From a virus (taxonomy: Duplodnaviria; Heunggongvirae; Uroviricota; Caudoviricetes): DNA of 31,007 nt. The notes under the pieces were generated by a model. That model saw only the letters and a list, made by a program, of their open reading frames with translations. It was not told where the DNA came from and made no database searches. Shown piece by piece: positions 2,428-25,866 of the stretch. Positions within the stretch are counted from its first letter, which is position 1. Every line of letters begins with the position of its first letter. The translations under genes were made by a program, and so were the position numbers. The DNA lies in the IMG/VR virus record IMGVR_UViG_2917881069_000004, one strand, 5' to 3'.

Positions 2428-3066
2428 TTAGATGCTCTTAATCACTTTTACCACACGCCCTACAACGGCTACGTCATCAACTGCACATTCAAAGGTTGTT
2501 TCTTCCTGATGAACAACAAGCTTATTTCCGGGAATTCGAGCTACTTTTACGATGCTTTTCACTCCATCAATATCAACAAGCCAAGAGCCATTACTGATCT
2601 GTTTTACAGATACATCAACAATAAAACTTTCTGTTGTCGTTTGTATGAATAGATAGTTTGACGAATCGCCCTCAACCAACCTGCTATCTAATAAAATTTC
2701 GTCATATGATTGAAGTTCACCATTTCTTAATTCTGTGTATTTGATACTGGGAGCTACGATTTTAGAAAGTGGTCTAATTGTGACGTCATTATCATTTTTG
2801 AGAATGTTTGAGTCACAGTTATCTGCATACATATCACCCTGTCCGGTTGCCAACCAAAGAAGCGAGATCCCGGTTTCTAGAGCACATTGAATTACCCACT
2901 CTGCTGGAAAGCTATCTCTTAAGTATCTGTTTGCCATGGTGCTTTTAGATACTTTTAAGTGTTCGCAGAGTTGTTGGCGTGAGCTGAAATTGTAGGCTTT
3001 TATCAGCCTGTTGATGGCATCACGACCCCCACTATCGTTTCCACCCTTGATTAGACTCATAATCAA
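2428..3066 (-). CDS. cI: Immunity repressor, 186-type CI family
   Basis: 212 aa. Position between int and the divergent early operon. N-terminal HTH-like region (CALETGISLLWLATGQG) and C-terminal motifs (WLVDIDG, FECAVDD, GRVVKVI) resemble phage 186 CI as recalled. AAGGGG sits 7 nt upstream of the ATG. Confidence 0.7.
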   Translation of the reverse strand: MIMSLIKGGNDSGGRDAINRLIKAYNFSSRQQLCEHLKVSKSTMANRYLRDSFPAEWVIQCALETGISLLWLATGQGDMYADNCDSNILKNDNDVTIRPLSKIVAPSIKYTELRNGELQSYDEILLDSRLVEGDSSNYLFIQTTTESFIVDVSVKQISNGSWLVDIDGVKSIVKVARIPGNKLVVHQEETTFECAVDDVAVVGRVVKVIKSI

Positions 3067-6112: not shown

Positions 6113-8522
6113 GTCATGACGATATGAGCAACTCTAGCGGCTTTAACGAGGCCGCAGCAGCATTTTCATGGAACGGCCCGAAAAAGGCCATTAACCCTTA
6201 TCTGGACCCGGCGGAAGTTGCGCCGGTTTCTGCGCTTTCAAACCTGATCACTCTGTACGCTGCCGATAACGAGCAGGAACAACTGCGCCGCGAGGCACTG
6301 AGTGATCAGGTCTGGGAGCGTTATTTCTTTAATGAATCCCGTGATCCTGTCCAACGCGAAATGGAGCAGGATAAGCTCATTAGCCGGGCAAAGCTGGCGC
6401 ATGAGCAGCAGCGTTTTAATCCAGATATGGTCATTCTGGCGGACGTCAATGCCCAGCCTTCCCATATCAGCAAGCCGCTGATGCAACGTATTGAATACTT
6501 CAGCAGCCTGGGCAGGCCAAAGGCTTATTCCCGCTATTTGCGTGAGACGATTAAGCCATGTCTGGAACGACTGGAGCATGTACGCGACAGTCAGCTATCC
6601 ACTTCTTTTCGCTTTATGGCAAGCCATGAAGGGCTGGACGGCCTGCTGATCCTGCCTGAAATGAGTCAGGATCAGGTGAAACGCTTGTCTACCCTTGTCG
6701 CTGCGCATATGAGCATGTGCCTTGATGCAGCTTGTGGCGATTTGTATGTCACCGATGACGTTAAGCCAGAAGAAATCCGCAATACATGGGAAAAGGTGGC
6801 AGCGGAAACCCTGCGTCTGGATGTCATCCCGCCTGCGTTTGAGCAACTCCGCCGGAAAAGAAACCGCCGTAAACCCGTGCCCTATGAACTCATTCCGGGT
6901 TCGCTGGCGCGTATGTTGTGCGCTGACTGGTGGTACCGGAAATTATGGAAGATGCGTTGCGAATGGCGGGAAGAGCAGTTGCGTGCTGTCTGCCTGGTCA
7001 GCAAAAAAGCATCTCCCTATGTCAGCTATGAAGCCGTGATGCATAAACGTGAGCAGCGCCGTAAGTCGCTGGAGTTTTTTCGTTCTCATGAACTGGTGAA
7101 CGAAGACGGCGACACGCTGGACATGGAGGATGTGGTAAACGCCAGCAGCAGCAACTCTGCGCATCGCCGCAATGAGATGATGGCCTGTGTTAAAGGCCTG
7201 GAGCTTATCGCGGAAATGCGCGGTGACTGCGCCGTTTTCTACACCATCACCTGTCCGTCACGTTTCCATTCCACGCTAAATAACGGCAGGCCCAACCCGA
7301 CCTGGACAAATGCGACGGTAAGACAAAGCAGTGATTATCTGGTCGGCATGTTTGCTGCATTTCGTAAGGCGATGCACAAAGCCGGATTGCGCTGGTATGG
7401 CGTGCGGGTGGCTGAGCCGCATCATGACGGTACAGTTCACTGGCACCTGTTGTGTTTTATGCGCAAAAAAGATCGCCGCGCCATTACTGCTTTGTTGCGT
7501 AAGTTTGCCATTCGTGAAGACCGCGAGGAGCTGGGGAATAACACGGGACCACGCTTTAAGTCTGAGTTGATTAACCCGCGCAAAGGAACGCCGACAAGCT
7601 ACATCGCGAAATATATCAGCAAGAACATTGACGGGCGTGGTCTGGCTGGCGAGATCAGCAAGGAAACGGGTAAATCTCTGCGTGATAACGCTGAATACGT
7701 TAATGCCTGGGCGTCTCTGCATCGTGTTCAGCAATTCCGCTTCTTTGGTATTCCGGGGCGTCAGGCTTACCGTGAACTGCGATTGCTGGCTGGTCAGGCG
7801 GCAAGGCAACAGGGCGACAAAAAGCAGGTGCGCCGGTACTGGATAACCCGCGCCTTGATGCCATCCTGGCTGCTGCTGATGCTGGTTGTTTTGCCACTTA
7901 CATCATGAAGCAGGGTGGTGTACTGGTTCCCCGCAAATATCACCTCATCAGAACTGCTTATGAAATTAACGAAGAGCCGACCGCCTATGGCGATCACGGC
8001 ATTCGTATTTATGGCATCTGGTCACCCATTGCAGAGGGCAAGATCTGCACTCATGCAGTGAAGTGGAAAATGGTTCGTAAAGCCGTTGACGTTCAGGAGG
8101 CGGTAGCCGACCAGGGCGCTTGCGCCCCTTGGACTCGTGGCAATAACTGTCCCCTTGCTGAAAATTTGAACCAACATGAGAAAGATAAATCAGCAGACGG
8201 GGATACCAGAACGGACATTTCCTGCATGGATGACAAGGAATTGCACGATTACCTGCACAGTATGGGCAAAAAAGAGCACCGGGAACTGGCAGCAAGATTA
8301 CGCCTGGTTAAACCGAAACGGCGTAAAGACCACAAACAGCGAATTACAGACCATCAGCGTCAGCAGCTCGTCTATGAACTGAAGTCCAGAGGATTTGATG
8401 GCAGCGAGAAAGAAGTCGATTTACTGCTTCGTGGCGGCAGTATTCCGTCAGGAGCAGGCCTGCGTATCTTCTATCGGAACCAGCGTTTGCAGGAAGATGA
8501 TAAGTGGCGGGATCTGTATTAA
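6109..8522 (+). CDS. A: Rolling-circle replication initiator (P2 gpA-like); apparent 1-nt frame shift near 7810-7820
   Basis: HUH-type motif [10 protein letters not shown]. Track ORFs 6109..7908 and 7905..8522 are continuous in sense (..QGDKK / [32 protein letters not shown]..) if the A5 run is A6. Confidence 0.8.
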
Positions 8523-8615
8523 TTACGCGGGTTAACAATTCGTGCTCTTAATAATACCAGGCATATCAGGCTGATGAACGTAAAAAAAACGTTTTACATC
8601 AGTAAGATTATTATA

Positions 8616-8635
8616 TACTGTAAATATAAACAGTG
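8616..8635 (+). promoter_or_regulatory. LexA (SOS) box overlapping a candidate promoter
   Basis: TACTGTAAATATAAACAGTG fits CTGT-N8-ACAG and matches 17 of 20 positions of the consensus TACTGTATATATATACAGTA. A -35-like TTTACA lies at 8593-8598. The box is 42 nt upstream of the 8677 ATG. Confidence 0.7.
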
Positions 8636-8676
8636 GTTATATATACAGTGTTGCGTATGGTGTTATAGGAGGAAAG

Positions 8677-8865
8677 ATGCAGGACTATTTTTGGGAGTCT
8701 TTGAAGCTCCAGCGCATTGATTTTTTTCTTAAGCTTGTAGCGGCTAGTGAGTGTAGCGATGAAGAGAAGGGGCTGGCTCTGCAGTGGGTTTCTGAATTGA
8801 CTGATGAGTTGATGGCGAAAATTCGAAGCCATGAATACAGTAGGTCGATGGATGTAATCAGTTGA
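8677..8865 (+). CDS. Small protein (62 aa) under a LexA box; candidate SOS-induced antirepressor or moron
   Basis: Strong RBS (TAGGAGGAAAG then ATG). Occupies the position of 186 tum (between A and cos) in a phage with a 186-type CI. No sequence resemblance to DinI recognised. Confidence 0.55.
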   Translation: MQDYFWESLKLQRIDFFLKLVAASECSDEEKGLALQWVSELTDELMAKIRSHEYSRSMDVIS

Positions 8866-10197: not shown

Positions 10198-10662
10198 GGC
10201 ATGACAAACTCATAGCCATATAGGTGTGCTGTATAAATTAGCGGGATGAGAAAGCCTGCGCAGCCCCTCATGTTGAAACTTGATTTTAGCTCAAAAGAGC
10301 TGACACTAAATAACTGCGCGGAATAATGCTCCACTTTCGGTTAGCCCTTGCTGGGTAAGGCGTGGGGCCGTTTTCTTCGCCTGATCCTGCTGTATCTGGC
10401 CTACAGTATGTTGCCCTTACGCGACATGCCACATGTCAGTAAACGGCAGGTGTAGCAGTATTAGACGCAGCTATTTAGTGTGTATTAAGCTGGCTCATAT
10501 TTATGACTGGTTTCAAGGTTTGACCGATTTTCATGTCATGCATGTCTATGCTGCATGAGTTCGCATGATCGTTTGAGGATCGGTTTGGCTAAGACATGCC
10601 AGAACTGGCGGGCTTTTGCTCATGTCATGCAGGTGCATGAAAACCACTACATAAAGCGGGCA

Positions 10663-10681
10663 GGCGTGGCGGGGATACGAG
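10663..10681. other. cos site (cohesive-end region)
   Basis: GGCGTGGCGGGGATACGAG resembles the 19-nt cohesive ends of P2 (GGCGAGGCGGGGAAAGCAC) and 186 as recalled. Correct position between the variable island and portal gene Q. Confidence 0.6.
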
Positions 10682-10770
10682 CGCGCGCAACGGGGTAAAA
10701 TGGCCAAAATCCGGCACAGCCTCTGGCCCGCTGGCGGCCTCATTTAGTGGAGGGGGGGCGATGTCAGGGC

Positions 10771-10806
10771 AAAAAGAAACGCCCCGCAGAATGCTGCTGA
10801 GGCGTT
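10771..10806 (-). terminator. Possible terminator of the leftward P-Q late operon
   Basis: AACGCC / GGCGTT arms with an internal GCAG/CTGC mini-stem, followed on the minus strand by a T-run; about 40 nt downstream of the Q stop. Loop is long, so weak. Confidence 0.3.
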
Positions 10807-10841
10807 GTGAGAGTTGGTCGGTTATTGATGTTATGAGTATG

Positions 10842-11885
10842 TCAGCTTCGTTTGCCCTTAAGTCCTAAGTCATAGGCTTCAAAACGGATAACCTCTTCAT
10901 CCAGCCAGTCATTCAGCTCCTGCAGTCGCTTTTGCAGGGGCATCAGTTCATTGCGGACGAAGACACGGCTCGCTTTTTCCACATCCCCAAAGCCGCCAGT
11001 GTTGTTGGGAATGATGCCCATCATTTGCGGCGGTACGCGGTGAGCCGCCATCATGTCATCGCGGCTGACGTTCTTGATGTTCAGAAATTCATCCTTCGCC
11101 GCGACTTCCGACAACGGGATAATCTGAATGCCATCTTTTTTGCCGTTAGGCGAGTACATAAACAGGTTGCGGAAGTTGCCCGGTCCTTTAGCACTTTTCA
11201 TTGCCTTGCGGATGTTGTTCACATCCTCCTGGTTCTGTGCGGCGTCGGTCATGTACATGATGAAGCCTGCGTGGCTGCCGTTAATGTAATACTTGCGGCG
11301 GAACAGCGTGGCGGATTCGTTGAGCAGAGCTGACGGAATGGCAGAAAGGTAACCCGGCAGACCATAAATCTCCTGGTTGATATCCGGCTCCATCAGGTGG
11401 AAGACGTTACCTTTTGTGAACTGATACGGCTGTGTCGTCAGGCTGTATTGCACAAACCAGTATGTTTCAAGGTCAAGCCCGCGTCGGGTGTATTTTGCCA
11501 GTGCAGGCTCCAGCGAAATAACTTCACCAAAGCGGTTCGTGCGTTTCTCCAGGTAGGCGTTACCAAAAACCAGATAGTCCTGCACAAAACGGGTAAATGC
11601 CTGCTGGCTGAGAAGGCGATGTGGAATATAGGTACTGCTGATAATGTCACGCTTAACACTGATCGGGGAGCTGTGGTGCACGGCGGCGCGGAAGGTGCGC
11701 GCCAGTCCGTCAAAGCTGACGGGTGGCTCATACCAGCGATCCATCTGTACGCATTCCACATAGTCCAGCAGTTCGCGGCGGTCCAGTACAGGAATGGGAT
11801 CACCAAAGCTGAAAGCCTCCGCAACGGGTTTTTTAGTTTCTTCTGCAGTTACGGTTTCGCCTGGCGCGATATGTTCTTTCATCAA
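10842..11885 (-). CDS. Q: Portal protein (P2 gpQ-like)
   Basis: 347 aa (P2 Q is about 344 aa). Start overlaps the terminase stop. Position next to cos. Confidence 0.85.
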   Translation of the reverse strand: MMKEHIAPGETVTAEETKKPVAEAFSFGDPIPVLDRRELLDYVECVQMDRWYEPPVSFDGLARTFRAAVHHSSPISVKRDIISSTYIPHRLLSQQAFTRFVQDYLVFGNAYLEKRTNRFGEVISLEPALAKYTRRGLDLETYWFVQYSLTTQPYQFTKGNVFHLMEPDINQEIYGLPGYLSAIPSALLNESATLFRRKYYINGSHAGFIMYMTDAAQNQEDVNNIRKAMKSAKGPGNFRNLFMYSPNGKKDGIQIIPLSEVAAKDEFLNIKNVSRDDMMAAHRVPPQMMGIIPNNTGGFGDVEKASRVFVRNELMPLQKRLQELNDWLDEEVIRFEAYDLGLKGKRS

Positions 11886-13646
11886 AAAATCTCCACAATA
11901 TTGCTGGTATTGGCGGACTCGCCCTGCAGCGGTTCGTTAAACAGTGCGTGCATGGTTGCCCATGCCAGATCGGCGTGGCTGGCTTCTTCGCTGCGGCTGG
12001 CTTCGTAGGTCGGGCGGTTGCCACTGGCGGTGGTGGCGCGACGGATTGCCATGAATGACTGCGCAATGTCGGTATGTCCGGCGTCAAACTCCAGACGGCG
12101 GTGGCTGATAATGTCGTAGGCCTTGAGTACCAGGGCGTTTTTAACGTTGGGGTTGTAGACAAACTCCCGGACGGCAGGAAAGAACGCTTTCACGTTCTCG
12201 TAAACCCCGTGACCGACGCCGGTTGAGTCGATACCGATATAGGTCACGTTGTACTGTTCGGTCAGTTTTTTGATGGCGTCAGCTGGGCGCGGAAGTCCAT
12301 CCCGCGCCACTGGTGACGCTCAAGAATGCGGAACTTACCGCCTGGCACGGCTGGCGGTGCCACCACCACGCATCCGGCGCTGTCGCCGTTCTGCGTACCT
12401 TTTGCCGGGTCATAACCGATCCACACTTCGCGCCAGCCAAACGGGCGCAGGGCCAGTGCATGAAAGTCGGTCCAGACTTCCCAGCTGTCCACCATGCACG
12501 CCTGCAATTCGCTGAGCGGGAACACAGATGCGAGATCGTCAACGAACTCGCACATCAGCAGGTTCTGGTATTCGTCCGGGCTGTACTCCATGCGCAACTG
12601 GTCGAGGTCGAACAGGTTACAGCCGCCGCGTACCGCATCTTCCACGGTGATTATCTGGCGGTATTGCCCGTCTGCGCACAGCAGGCCGGGGGCCAGATTG
12701 CTGTGGGACAGGTCGATGTCCACCTTATCGGCTTTGTTGCGCCCACGGTTGAACAGCGCACCGGACCAGAACGGATAAGCACTGTGTGTCAGGCTGGATG
12801 GCGTGGAAAAATAGGTCTGTCGCCATTTCTTGTGAATAGCCATACCGGAAGCCACTTTGCGCAGCTCCTGGAATTTCGGTATCCAGAAATATTCATCCAG
12901 ATACAGGTTGCCGTGGTAACTCTGGGCCGTGCGGGCATTGGTGCCGAGGAAATACAGTGTGGCCCCGTTGGGAAGCACCATCGGATCGCCTTTCAGCTCC
13001 ACCTCCACTTCTTTGGCGAAGTCGATGATGTACTGCTTAAAGACGTGGGCCTGTGCCTTACTGGCAGAAAGGAAAATCTGGTTACGTCCGGTAAGCAGGG
13101 CGTCAATCAGGGCTTCACGGGCAAAGTAAAAGGTCGCACCGATCTGGCGTGACTTCAGCAGGTTGCGGATGCGGTTGGTTTTTCCGGCTTCCCACCAGTG
13201 GCGCTGGTAGTTGAACATGGAGGAATGGAAGATTTCTTCCAGCTTCTCAATCTGTTCATCGGTGAAAACGTTCTTTTCCGGCTGACGACGCGGGCCTTTG
13301 TTGCGGTTGGCGACGTTAGGGTTTAAGTCGCTTCGTTGCCGCCATTGTTAAACTTGCCGATCCGCGCGTGGCGCTCCGACTGGCGCGCCAGCAGGTCAAT
13401 CTCTTTGAAATCTTTCCCTTCTTTGTGCTCCTTCATAATGAGCTGGCAGTAGCGTGCGGCGGTGGTGAGCTGCATCTGATCCAGCGGCCCATAATCACCC
13501 CACTTGTCGCGTTTTTTCCAGCTGTGAACGGTTGCAACTTTCTCGCCCAGCATTTCAGCAATGCGGGCTACGCGGTATCCCTGAAAGTACAGCAGCATGG
13601 CCTGCCGACGGGGATCGAGATCTGCGGGTGTCAGTGTGGTGTTCAT
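11882..13646 (-). CDS. P: Terminase large (ATPase) subunit (P2 gpP-like); two apparent 1-nt frame shifts
   Basis: Three track ORFs (13323..13646, 12262..13218, 11882..12310) tile one gene of about 588 codons. Junctions lie near 13327-13347 and near 12285-12300 (ccc run). The sense continues across both junctions. Confidence 0.8.
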
Positions 13647-13692
13647 GGCACAAACCTACAGCCTTGAATGAAGGCTTTCCCCGCCTGCGGTT

Positions 13693-13710
13693 TGTGTGGT
13701 TGTCGGTACA
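13693..13710 (+). promoter_or_regulatory. Late-promoter activator dyad TGT-N12-ACA (PO-like)
   Basis: TGTgtggttgtcggtACA in the P/O divergent intergenic region, centred about 87 nt upstream of the O start. P2 late promoters carry this dyad near -55 (established). Confidence 0.55.
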
Positions 13711-13788
13711 AATACCGCGCATTGTTTCACTGCCCCCATCACCGCAACCATAAGGCTCCAGTAAGTTTTTTCTAACGGAGCACGGCTC

Positions 13789-14621
13789 ATGACAGTGAAA
13801 GCAAAGCGTTTTCGCATCGGGGTGGAAGGTGCCACCACCGACGGACGCGAAATCCAGCGTGAATGGCTGGAACAGATGGCAGCCAGCTACAACCCGGCGG
13901 TGTATACCGCGCTGATTAACCTTGAGCACATTAAGTCTTATCTGCCGGACAGCACCTTTAATCGCTACGGCAAGGTGACGGCATTGTTTGCTAAAGAAAT
14001 CACGGAAGGTCCGCTGGCGGGCAAGATGGCGCTGTATGCCGACGTTGAGCCAACGGAGTCCCTGGTGGAGCTGGTGAAAAAAGGCCAGAAATTATTCACC
14101 TCTATGGAAGTCAGCCCGAAGTTTGCTGATACGGGCAAAGCCTACCTGGTCGGCCTGGCTGCCACTGATGATCCCGCCAGTCTGGGTACGGAAATGCTGA
14201 CATTCAGCGCCAGTGCAGCCCATAACCCGCTGGCAAATCGCAAGCAGAATCCCGCCAATCTCTTTACCGCCGCAGAGGAAACGGTGATCGAACTGGAAGA
14301 AGTCCAGGACGACAAACCGTCCCTGTTTGCCCGCGTCACGGCGCTGTTCACCAAAAAGAGCAGTCAGACGATGCCCGGTTCTCTGATGTGCATAAGGCCG
14401 TGGAGCTGGTCGCCACTGAGCAGCAAAACCTGAGCGGACGCACCGAAAAATCCCTGTCTGAGCAGGAAGAACGCCTGTCTGAGCTGGAGACTGCTCTGCA
14501 GGAGCAGCAAACCGCCTTTAACGAACTGGTGAATAAGCTGAGTCATGAAGACAGCCGCCAGGACTACCGCCAGCGTGCAACAGGCGGTAACGCCCCCGCT
14601 GACACTCTGACCAATTGCTGA
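13789..14621 (+). CDS. O: Capsid scaffold protein (P2 gpO-like); apparent 1-nt frame shift near 14370
   Basis: Track ORFs 13789..14433 and 14388..14621 overlap in different frames and sum to about 277 aa (P2 O is about 284 aa). Confidence 0.75.
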
Positions 14622-18761: not shown

Positions 18762-19155
18762 AGCGGTGCCTTATGTCCGTCATAACCCGGACAAACTGCA
18801 TCTGTTTGTGGATAACGGTTCGCTGGTTGCCACGGGGGCCAGCTCCATGTCATGGGAGTACCGTTACACCCTGAACGTGGTGATTGAGGATTTCAGCGGC
18901 GACCAGAATCTGCTGATGGCACCGGTTTTGCTGTGGCTGCGGGATAACCAGCCCGATGCCATCAATAACCCGGCGTTACGGGAAAAGCTATTCACCTTTG
19001 AGGTGGATATTTTGCGCAACGATGTCTGTGATATCAGCCTTAACCTGCAACTGACGGAGCGTGTGCTGGTCAGCACTGACGGCAGTGTGTCGAGTGTTGA
19101 AGCTGTAGCGGAACCCGATGAACCTGAAGAAATGTGGACGGTGAAACGTGGCTGA
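18703..19155 (+). CDS. R: Tail completion protein (P2 gpR-like)
   Basis: 150 aa; position after the lysis cassette. Exact start uncertain (a GTG near 18724 with GGAGCG upstream is an alternative). Confidence 0.65.
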   Translation: MRVRSETVNKPQSLRHALNKAVPYVRHNPDKLHLFVDNGSLVATGASSMSWEYRYTLNVVIEDFSGDQNLLMAPVLLWLRDNQPDAINNPALREKLFTFEVDILRNDVCDISLNLQLTERVLVSTDGSVSSVEAVAEPDEPEEMWTVKRG

Positions 19156-19595
19156 ACTGCAGAAGGTGGACGACTGGCTGAATGCCTTGCTGGCGAATCT
19201 GGAACCAGCCGCCAGAAGCCGCATGATGCGCCAGCTGGCGCAGGAACTGCGCCGGACACAGCAGCAGAACATCAGGATGCAGCGCAATCCTGATGGCAGC
19301 AGCTATGAACCGAGGCGAGTAACAGCACGCAGTAAAAAAGGCCGTATCAAAACGTCAGATGTTTGCAAAGCTGCGCACCACAAAATACCTGAAAACCGCC
19401 GCCAGCGCCGACTCTGCCAGCGTCCAGTTTGAAGGCAAGGTACAGCGCATTGCCCGTGTTCATCACTACGGCCTGCGCGATCGCGTCAGTCGTAAGGGAC
19501 CGGAGGTCCGTTACGCAGAGCGTCGCCTTCTGGGTGTAAATGATGATGTTGAGGCAATGACCCGTGACATGATTCTGCAATGGCTGGCGGGGTGA
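19148..19595 (+). CDS. S: Tail completion protein (P2 gpS-like); apparent 1-nt frame shift near 19340
   Basis: Track ORFs 19148..19432 and 19359..19595 join to about 149 aa (P2 S is 150 aa) if an aaaa run is aaa (..GRIKRQMFAKLRTTKY..). Confidence 0.7.
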
Positions 19596-19599
19596 TCTT

Positions 19600-19617
19600 T
19601 GTATCAGCACTGATACA
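19600..19617 (+). promoter_or_regulatory. Late-promoter activator dyad TGT-N12-ACA (PV-like)
   Basis: Perfect palindrome TGTATCAGCACTGATACA, centred about 55 nt upstream of the V ATG. Confidence 0.55.
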
Positions 19618-19663
19618 AGTTGCAGCACTGCCGCCTTTCTTCCCCTGATGGCAACCTTTCCCT

Positions 19664-20242
19664 ATGAACGCACAATTAACCGAAATCATGCGCCTTATCA
19701 CCAATCTGATCCGCACAGGTGTAGTCACCGAAGTGGACCGGGAAAACTGGCTGTGTCGGGTGAAAACGGGCGACCTTGAAACTAACTGGATCAGTTGGCT
19801 GACGCTGCGTGCCGGGAATGCCCGCACATGGTGGCGACCATCGGAAGGTGAGCAGGTGGTGCTGCTGAGTCTGGGAGGCAATCTGGAAACCGCCTTTGCG
19901 CTGCCCGCTGTCTATTCGAATCACTTCGCGCCACCGTCGACGTCGGCGGAAGCCTGCGTGACAGAACATCCTGACGGTGGCTGGTTTGAATACGAACCCA
20001 CCACCGGGCGCTGGTATGTCAGGGGCATCAAATCCATGGTCATTGAGGCTGCCGACAACATAACCCTGAAAACCAGTGAGTTTGTACTGGAGGCTGACCG
20101 CACACGTATTAACAGTGAAGTGGTGATCAATGGTGGCGTTACCCAGGGCGGCGGAGCGATGAGTTCTAACGGGATCGTGGTTGATGCACATCAGCATACT
20201 GGCGTCCTGAAAGGCGGCGACACAACCGGAGGCCCGGTATGA
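19664..20242 (+). CDS. V: Baseplate spike protein (P2 gpV-like)
   Basis: 192 aa; N-terminus IRTGVVTEVD, WLCRVKTG, WLTLRAG resembles P2 V as recalled. Confidence 0.8.
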   Translation: MNAQLTEIMRLITNLIRTGVVTEVDRENWLCRVKTGDLETNWISWLTLRAGNARTWWRPSEGEQVVLLSLGGNLETAFALPAVYSNHFAPPSTSAEACVTEHPDGGWFEYEPTTGRWYVRGIKSMVIEAADNITLKTSEFVLEADRTRINSEVVINGGVTQGGGAMSSNGIVVDAHQHTGVLKGGDTTGGPV

Positions 20243-24075: not shown

Positions 24076-24093
24076 TGTGTGAATAACGGTACA
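24076..24093 (+). promoter_or_regulatory. Late-promoter activator dyad TGT-N12-ACA (PF-like)
   Basis: TGTgtgaataacggtACA, centred about 85 nt upstream of the FI ATG; CAGGAGG RBS at 24155-24161. Confidence 0.55.
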
Positions 24094-24169
24094 ACTGCGC
24101 TTAGCTGTTTGTCAGGCACAATCACTTCAATATAGGGCGAAGCCTAATCCAATCAGGAGGTTCGCCACT

Positions 24170-25341
24170 ATGGCTCAGGATTACCACCACGGGGTGCGCG
24201 TTGTTGAAGTCAACGAAGGCACCCGATCCATTACCACGGTGAGCACCGCCATCGTGGGTATGGTCTGCACGGGCGATGATGCCGATGCAAAAATGTTTCC
24301 TCTTAATAAACCCGTGCTGATCACTGATGTACTGACCGCCAGCGGTAAAGCGGGTGAGTCCGGCACGCTGGCCCGTTCGCTGGATGCCATCGCTGACCAG
24401 GCAAAACCCGTGACCGTTGTTGTGCGTGTGCCGCAGGGTGAAACGGAAGAAGAAACCACGACCAATATCATCGGCGCAGTGACTGCTGAAGGTAAAAAAA
24501 CAGGCATGAAAGCCCTGTTATCTGCCCAGACACAGCTCGGCGTTAAACCGCGCATTCTCGGCGTGCCAGGTCACGATAACAAAGCCGTTGCTACTGAGTT
24601 GCTGAGTGTGGCGCAAAGCTGCGTGGGTTTGCCTACCTGTCAGCGTATGGCTGCAAGACGGTACAGGAGGCGATCACTTACCGTGAAAACTTCAGCCAGC
24701 GCGAAGGAATGCTGATCTGGCCTGACTTTACTGGCTGGGACACGGTGCTGAATGCCGAAGCAATGGCATATGCCACCGCTCGTGCGCTTGGTCTGCGTGC
24801 CAAAATTGATGAGCAGACCGGGTGGCACAAAAGCCTGTCCAACGTGGGCGTGAACGGTGTCACCGGAATTTCTGCAGATGTGTTCTGGGATCTGCAGGAC
24901 CCGGCAACCGATGCAGGTCTGCTGAACCAGAACGACGTCACCACGCTTGTGCGTAAAGACGGGTTCCGCTTCTGGGGTTCCCGCTGTCTGAGCGATGATC
25001 CGCTCTTTGCCTTCGAAAACTACACCCGCACGGCGCAGGTGCTGACGGACACAATGGCAGAAGCGCATATGTGGGCGGTGGACAAACCGCTGAACCCGTC
25101 GCTGGCCCGCGACATTATCGAAGGTATCCGCGCCAAAATGCGCAGCCTGGTCAGTCAGGGCTATCTCATTGGTGGTGATTGCTGGCTGGACGAGTCGGTG
25201 AATGACAAAGACACGCTGAAAGCCGGAAAACTCACCATCGATTACGACTACACGCCAGTACCGCCACTTGAAAACCTGATGCTGCGTCAGCGCATCACCG
25301 ATCAGTACCTGGTGAATTTCTCCAGCCAGGTAAGCGCGTAA
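24170..25341 (+). CDS. FI: Tail sheath protein (P2 gpFI-like); apparent 1-nt frame shift near 24616-24620
   Basis: Track ORFs 24170..24715 and 24709..25341 sum to about 390 aa (P2 FI is about 396 aa). The frame is restored if caaag is caaaag (..[41 protein letters not shown]..). Confidence 0.8.
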
Positions 25342-25350
25342 GGGGGCAAC

Positions 25351-25866
25351 ATGGCTTTACCACGTAAATTAAAACACCTGAACCTGTTTAATGACGGGAA
25401 CAACTGGCAGGGGATCGTTGAGTCGCTGACGCTGCCGAAATTCACCCGCAAATATGAGAAGTATCGCGGCGGCGGAATGCCGGGTGCGGTGGATGTGGAT
25501 CTGGGGCTGGATGACGGCGCACTGGATACTGAATTTTCCATTGGCGGTACTGAGCTACTGCTGTTTAAGCAGATGGGCAAAGCTACGGTGGATGGCATCC
25601 AGCTGCGCTTTACCGGCTCTATCCAGCGTGACGATACCGGGGAAGTGCAGGCCGTGGAGCTTGTAGTGCGTGGACGTCACAAAGAAGTGGATTCCGGCGA
25701 GTGGAAGACGGGCGAAAGCAACACCACCAAAGTGACCAGTACCAACAGCTACGCGAAGCTGACCATCAATGGTGAGGTGCTTTATGAAGTGGACCTTATC
25801 AACATGGTGGAAATTGTGGACGGTGTGGACCTGATGGAAGCGCACCGCAACGCCCTCGGCCTCTGA
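25351..25866 (+). CDS. FII: Tail tube protein (P2 gpFII-like)
   Basis: 171 aa directly after the sheath gene. Confidence 0.85.
   Translation: MALPRKLKHLNLFNDGNNWQGIVESLTLPKFTRKYEKYRGGGMPGAVDVDLGLDDGALDTEFSIGGTELLLFKQMGKATVDGIQLRFTGSIQRDDTGEVQAVELVVRGRHKEVDSGEWKTGESNTTKVTSTNSYAKLTINGEVLYEVDLINMVEIVDGVDLMEAHRNALGL

Follow-up and report, generated by a model that had tools for sequence, protein, structure and literature searches.

Gene V of bacteriophage P2 is a classic example of a leaderless mRNA in E. coli. The four late promoters of P2 are reportedly the subject of a paper by Christie and Calendar from 1985. This paper is cited where a P2 gene is counted among the few leaderless genes known in E. 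coli (PMC4633059), and no explicit statement that "P2 gene V" is leaderless was found in the literature searched. The late activator Ogr binds to inverted repeats centred near -55, and it must contact the alpha subunit of RNA polymerase (PMC3152322). For P2, the dependence of late transcription on the activator and on the C-terminal domain of the alpha subunit (rpoA109-sensitive) is established (PMC3152322). In the RefSeq record of P2 (NC_001895), the activator site of pV is placed at 10239-10266 with its centre at 10252.5, and the start of the V operon and the coding start of V are both placed at 10308, so that the distance from the centre to the V ATG is 55.5 nt. In the same record, one site centred at about 3072 serves the divergent promoters pO and pP, whose starts (3127 and 3016) lie 55-56 nt on either side, and the pF site lies 57-59 nt before its start.

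The locus described here belongs to a stretch of viral DNA of 31,007 nucleotides (the window), which represents a prophage or phage of the P2/186 family (Peduoviridae). Its left part carries int, a 186-like cI and cII, followed by Q and P facing leftward, and the late genes O N M L X Y K ... R S, V W J I H G and FI FII E T U D face rightward. The closest records in the phage collection, Escherichia phage 500465-1 (genus Wadgaonvirus) and a set of Klebsiella prophages, are about 95% identical to the window, Fels-2 is about 82% identical, and similar prophages are present in about 2000 of 5426 complete E. coli genomes. V is the head of the six-gene late operon V W J I H G, and the dyad of pV lies directly upstream of it, in a gap of 68 nt between S and V; the stop codon of S ends 4 nt before the dyad core. 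Judged from sequence comparison, the element at 19600-19617 is very probably the activator site of pV with a leaderless V message, and its short distance from V would be the normal and conserved design. The coordinates of the features are collected in the table.

Table. Features of the window around the V, O/P and FI promoters, and positions of single-base indels
Feature	Coordinates	Strand	Description
Indel sites relative to 500465-1, left part	7281, 7480, 7819 (A); 8396-8786; 10668-10998		
Indel sites relative to 500465-1, P to S	12284, 13331 (P); 14358 (O); 17095 (X); 19352 (S)		
Indel sites relative to 500465-1, FI to D	24620 (FI); 28803 (T); 29737 (U); 29980 (D)		
P-facing promoter core	13646..13658	-	hexamer TAGGTT 13653-13658; predicted start 13646 = A of P ATG
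O/P shared activator dyad	13693..13710	.	TGTGTGGTTGTCGGTACA; centre 13701.5; conserved in 80 close loci; predicted
O-facing promoter core	13745..13789	+	hexamer CAACCA 13745-13750; predicted start near 13757; leader of about 32 nt
O Shine-Dalgarno and start codon	13777-13780; 13789	+	GGAG; ATG
Gene S	19148..19595	+	tail completion; closes the upstream O operon; interrupted by a 1-nt insertion near 19352
Composite RNA hairpin on read-through transcripts	19586..19641	+	outer stem GGCGGG/CUGCCGCC around the dyad hairpin, then UUUCUU; predicted
V late-promoter activator (Ogr/B-type) dyad	19598..19619	.	cTTGTATCAG-CA-CTGATACAAg; predicted binding
V extended -10	19649..19657	+	TGg (19649-19651) and CAACCT (19652-19657); A19653 = -11, T19657 = -7; predicted
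V-operon transcript start	19664	+	+56 from the dyad centre = A of ATG; predicted
Gene V	19664..20242	+	baseplate spike, 192 aa; Pfam Phage_base_V and GpV Apex motif
FI late promoter	24076..24170	+	dyad TGTGTGAATAACGGTACA 24076-24093; hexamer CAATAT 24128-24133; predicted start 24140
FI Shine-Dalgarno and start codon	24155-24160; 24170	+	AGGAGG; ATG

The core of the V dyad, TGTATCAGCACTGATACA, has the form TGT-N12-ACA and is centred at 19608.5. A repeat search returned arms of 9 nt with 100% complementarity, and a flanking C/G pair extends them to 10, giving two perfect 10-nt arms around a 2-nt CA spacer. An earlier note on this DNA had called it an 18-bp perfect palindrome; it is a perfect inverted repeat, but not a strict palindrome, because the central CA is not self-complementary. 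The three dyads listed in that note (13693-13710, 19600-19617 and 24076-24093) were all confirmed in the sequence. Its distances hold as well: the O and FI dyads, given as 85-87 nt before the ATG, have their centres 87.5 nt and 85.5 nt before the respective ATGs, and the V dyad, given as about 55 nt, is centred 55.5 nt before the A of the V ATG. The bare motif TGT-N12-ACA is no more frequent in the window than chance would give (7 matches, with 7.7 expected), so the case for the dyad must rest on position and conservation. Other matches found in the scan of the window, at 10409, 25385 and 27380, have no intergenic position. The match at 25385, which lies inside FII, has an A at -11 and a T at -7 by chance, and is the only one of the three to do so.

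For the comparison of the regions upstream of V, two sets of loci were used. Set 1, which consists of 80 viral contigs encoding a V protein with 96-98% identity to that of the window, informs on mosaic upstream cassettes, and set 2, which consists of 80 loci from an alignment-based scan (one genome per species, V 42-97% identical), supplies deep divergence. The 160 V loci were grouped into 49 clusters of upstream sequence by single linkage at 70% identity or more over 75 nt. In 35 of the 49 clusters, an exact TGT-N12-ACA is centred 54.5-57.5 nt before the V ATG. One cluster carries two, and the 36 exact dyads are centred at 55.5 (21), 56.5 (10), 57.5 (3) and 54.5 nt (2). Elsewhere in the 130-nt stretches upstream of V in the 49 clusters, only 4 matches occur. 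Most of the remaining clusters have the same element in place with one mismatch or with N11 or N13 spacing (for example P2, Wphi, phiCTX and L235). Among the 23 distinct upstream sequences of set 1, the 90 nt before V hold a single TGT-N12-ACA in every case, and its centre is always 54.5-57.5 nt from the ATG. The positional conservation and the annotation of P2 pV both support the assignment of the V dyad to the P2-family late activator made in the earlier note. The spacing, which the same note regarded as unusually close, turns out to be the norm of the family, annotated as 55.5 nt also in P2 and kept in the 35 clusters. The observation of the dyad was correct, and the anomaly of its spacing is only apparent.

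The S-V junction is a hot spot of accessory inserts ("morons"), of which orf30 in P2 is an example. Many relatives have unrelated DNA before V up to the ATG, and homology resumes exactly at the ATG equivalent to 19664. At least 13 unrelated inserts, mostly AT-rich, are seen at this junction (window 19596-19663) among the loci of set 1 (L005-L084), and all of them carry a dyad and a -10 element of their own, with an unchanged distance to the V ATG. Loci with other arrangements were also observed. In Scandinavium (L180) and Tatumella (L193), the V dyad is centred 68.5 nt before the ATG, 13 nt further away; L180 has the Shine-Dalgarno (SD) sequence AGAGGA and L193 a weaker SD-like AAGG, so that these are leadered variants of pV. 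These two exceptions support a fixed distance between the dyad and the transcript start. In the Xenorhabdus loci L230-L234, the start region of V, ATGAAYACWCAAC, is duplicated as ATGAATACTCAAC, ATGAATACACAAC or ATGAACACACAAC, depending on the locus. In L234, the first ATG is at the canonical 55.5 nt from the dyad and out of frame, and the second is 81.5 nt from the centre, a spacing of 26 nt; in L230, the spacing of the duplicated starts is 30 nt, in frame.

One representative of each of the 35 clusters was aligned on the dyad centre for the half-site and -10 consensus. The half-site consensus from these independent clusters is TTGTGYCA, and both arms of the V dyad of the window match it. From +44 to +49, counted from the dyad centre, there is a -10-like element, CAwnnT, often with TGg before it, resembling an extended -10; its A at +45 is found in 30 of 35 clusters and its T at +49 in 31 of 35. 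In the class with 55.5-nt spacing, A at -11 and T at -7, counted from the A of the ATG, are kept in 20 of 20 clusters. Because the consensus T is taken as -7, +1 in this class would fall at +56, on the A of the ATG. The same dyad and -10 offsets also reproduce the annotated starts of P2, those of pO and pP at +56 and that of pF at +57 to +59. In the case of P2 pP, whose start is at 3016, the final T of the hexamer TAGCCT lies 7 nt before that start and at +49 from the dyad centre. From this geometry and the P2 annotation, we infer the start of the V transcript to within about 2 nt. At P2 pF and 186 pJ, the annotated starts exceed the +56 distance from the dyad by 1-3 nt; were transcription of V to begin 1-2 nt downstream of A19664, its AUG would be lost. 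No sigma-70 consensus promoter was found in 19300-19900, as would be expected of an activator-dependent promoter.

The translation signals of V fit the same picture of a message that begins at its start codon. No SD sequence is found in the 17 nt before the V ATG (ggcaacctttccct). The loci were scored for SD matches of at least 4 nt within -17 to -4, with the W starts of the same loci set against V starts of this geometry; a match was found at 1 of 54 distinct V starts versus 52 of 62 W starts. All of 154 loci use ATG as the start codon of V. In E. coli, leaderless initiation depends strongly on AUG (PMC4633059), and the uniform V ATG fits this requirement.

Several other readings of the locus were weighed. 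The earlier note had proposed that the V message is leaderless or has a very short leader, or else that the true start of V lies later, at an in-frame ATG at 19688. This ATG does exist in frame, and if it were the start, 19664-19687 would become a 24-nt leader and leaderless translation would not be needed. In the protein alignment, however, Met1-Asn2 of V is invariant in the window, Fels-2, P2, 186 and phiCTX, and the ATG at 19688 corresponds to residue 9, which varies: it is Met in Fels-2 but Ala or Ser in P2, 186 and phiCTX. There is also no SD before 19688 (AACCGAAATC), the homology of the mosaic relatives begins exactly at the ATG of 19664, and the spacing to the dyad and to the -10 element is fixed for this ATG. 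We regard the start at 19688 as very unlikely; the position of the dyad does point to a leaderless V message, as the note suggested. Transcription from the same promoter might instead begin 1-3 nt upstream of the ATG, which would give V a very short leader. This reading gains some ground from the 13 of 35 clusters in which the dyad lies 56.5-57.5 nt from the ATG, several of which keep the -10 element anchored to the dyad and would produce leaders of 1-2 nt, and from the fact that the choice of start site can slip by 1-2 nt. The window itself falls into the 55.5 class with its invariant A and T, its A19664 is the sole purine in cttTccctATG (19656-19666), and the P2 start is annotated on the first base of V, all of which speak against such a leader, and we consider it improbable here.

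Instead of being a promoter element, the palindrome could act mainly in RNA and end the O operon after S, in the form of a terminator or attenuator hairpin. It begins 4 nt past the stop codon of S and is nested in a larger predicted hairpin of -24.9 kcal/mol (z = -2.0; 7 of 200 shuffles fold as well), followed by UUUCUU, and the P2 record does annotate a terminator of the O operon after S. Against this, the same dyad stands at the same distance from the V ATG in dozens of cassettes in which it is preceded by unrelated inserts and not by S, and what is conserved is TGT/ACA with the adjacent half-site bases, not the complementarity of a stem. The U-tract is poor, and a terminator scan of 19300-19900 did not call the palindrome; it gave one weak call inside S (19572-19593), where 0.8 were expected. 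A mainly RNA-level role thus has very little probability. That the motif is a functionless chance occurrence would agree with the number of TGT-N12-ACA matches in the window, which is close to expectation, yet chance would account neither for a position kept in 35 independent upstream clusters with almost no matches elsewhere, nor for the extended half-site consensus and the phased -10 element; this possibility is hardly worth entertaining. The reading of 19600-19617 as the activator site of pV is therefore retained in what follows.

A secondary role as an attenuator may be added to the promoter function of the S-V junction, although for the window we consider it rather doubtful. The compact S-V junctions of Wphi (GCCGCCGG...CCGGCGGC) and PSP3 (GGAGCCGCGCG...GCGCGACTCC) have GC-rich hairpins between the dyad and the -10 element. 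The hairpins of Wphi, PSP3 and the window could be attenuators of the O operon that overlap pV.

The dyad between O and P bears on a second message. The earlier note had found no dyad for P, and it is right that P has no separate element of its own; the element nevertheless exists, since the O dyad is centred 55.5 nt from the ATG of P (large terminase; 13646 on the minus strand), which has no SD. Read leftward from the O dyad, TAGGTT fills +44 to +49 (13658-13653), and +56 is the A of the P ATG. This 55.5-type distance of P is constant in the 80 close loci. It is also found in Klebsiella phage ST13-OXA48phi12.1 (55.5 nt), Salmonella phage SEN5 (55.5 nt, TAGCCT) and Yersinia phage vB_YenM_56.17 (56.5 nt, TAGCCT), so that several lineages have leaderless geometry without SD on the P side, whereas P2/186-type phages have a leader with SD. 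The P ATG lies at 78.5 nt with a GAGG SD in P2, 186, PSP3, Wphi, SEN1 and ST147-VIM1phi7.1, and at 75.5 nt with an SD in Klebsiella phage 3LV2017. The N-termini of P align (MNTTLTPADLDPRRQ in the window, MTITTDTTLLHDPRRQ in P2), and thus the P starts of the window and P2 differ by the absence or presence of a leader of about 23 nt. The P message is probably leaderless in the lineage of the window, unlike in P2 and 186. To our knowledge, a leaderless P message has not been described so far. Another dyad at 13635-13652 (TGTGGTGTTCATGGCACA), which overlaps the P ATG and is mostly coding, was considered and set aside; it is lost in close relatives (L098, L138, L123 and L139) and is probably due to chance.

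The promoters of O and FI have the same module as V, with ordinary leaders. An Ogr-like activator gene was not found within the window, which ends inside D, and the open reading frame at 1-237 gave no Pfam match. Most likely, the activator gene lies beyond the end of the window. In 500465-1, a 72-aa protein of the Ogr_Delta family (E = 9e-21) is encoded immediately after D; it shares 54-63% identity with P2 Ogr, 186 B and PSP3 Pag, and the four zinc-binding cysteines are kept. Because this activator resembles Ogr, B and Pag and conserves the cysteines, it is unlikely that the phage uses a different recognition motif.

As for the state of the window, single-base indels relative to 500465-1 split essential genes, and several of them adjoin short homopolymers. 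S appears as two Phage_tail_S halves in different frames, P as three pieces, and FI is broken into the open reading frames 24170-24715 and 24709-25341. Either the assembly contains many errors or the prophage is decaying. With so many frameshifts among its late genes, the copy may fail to be expressed productively.

Taken together, the following mechanism can be proposed. The Ogr/B-type zinc-finger activator of the phage would bind to 19600-19617 at pV and, from about 55 nt upstream of the start, would recruit the host RNA polymerase through its alpha subunit, as is established for P2. The polymerase would use the weak extended -10 TGgCAACCT (19649-19657) and start at A19664, and the resulting V message, which would have neither a 5' leader nor an SD, would be translated as a leaderless mRNA. 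The same module of dyad, -10 and start, read leftward from the O dyad, would probably yield a leaderless P message. The V element is of a known kind, being the orthologue of P2 pV, and what is new is how widely it is conserved, together with the leaderless P message that is predicted here. In the Fels-2/Wadgaonvirus-like lineage, two of the four late operons (V and P) may be leaderless by way of a rigid module (dyad, -10 at +44 to +49, AUG at +56), the V module may have been selected in at least 35 independent cassettes, and leaderless translation itself may be what is selected; we offer this as a tentative proposal that is about as open to doubt as to belief, and leaning slightly to doubt.

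If it holds, leaderless translation might be what keeps the spike protein and the terminase at low stoichiometry. Translation of V and P might also be tied to their own promoters, because on read-through transcripts the start codons would be internal AUGs without SD. The leaderless geometry survives the wholesale replacement of upstream sequence in dozens of prophages from many genera of Enterobacterales, and the prophages with their V loci would offer a ready-made natural set of promoters, some leaderless and some leadered, for the study of leaderless translation. For annotation, the starts of V and P should be kept at 19664 and 13646 despite the absence of ribosome-binding sites, and O and P should be assigned a single common dyad.

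In comparison with the known systems, the closest counterpart is P2 pV. It stands before the orthologous V, the centre of its activator site is at the same distance from the ATG, it also lacks an SD, and in both phages the end of a -10-like CAAnCT hexamer lies 6-7 nt ahead of the ATG (CAATCT in P2, CAACCT in the window). The P2 pV dyad is imperfect, with TGT-N11-ACA, whereas that of the window is perfect (10+2+10) with N12; and P2 has the accessory orf30 and an annotated terminator between S and V, whereas in the window the dyad follows straight after the S stop codon in the 68-nt gap. The O/P dyad of the window resembles P2 pO/pP and 186 pV/p12 in that one dyad would serve both directions, with starts (predicted for the window) about 55-56 nt on either side, and the P-side -10 hexamers are homologous (TAGCCT in P2, TAGGTT in the window). 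The difference on this side is the 23-nt leader with GAGG SD of P2, 186, PSP3 and Wphi, which is absent from the window. The S-V junctions of 186 (orf32) and PSP3 (orf15) are like that of the window in their intergenic length (68-69 nt), in a left half-site, TTGTGTG, at the same position, in a -10-like element (GGCATT/GGCATC) and in the lack of an SD. The right half of the dyad is absent there, whereas it is complete in the window and Fels-2, and no promoter is annotated at this junction in 186; a literature search for a 186 promoter before orf32 returned unrelated papers only. Because 186 and PSP3 have only the half-site, pV is not universal in the family. Outside the family, cI of lambda (from PRM) and tetR of Tn1721 share with the V message predicted here a 5'-terminal AUG, the lack of an SD and an origin in mobile elements (PMC4633059). 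These two genes encode regulators, whereas V encodes a structural spike protein, and the downstream genes of its operon have normal SDs.
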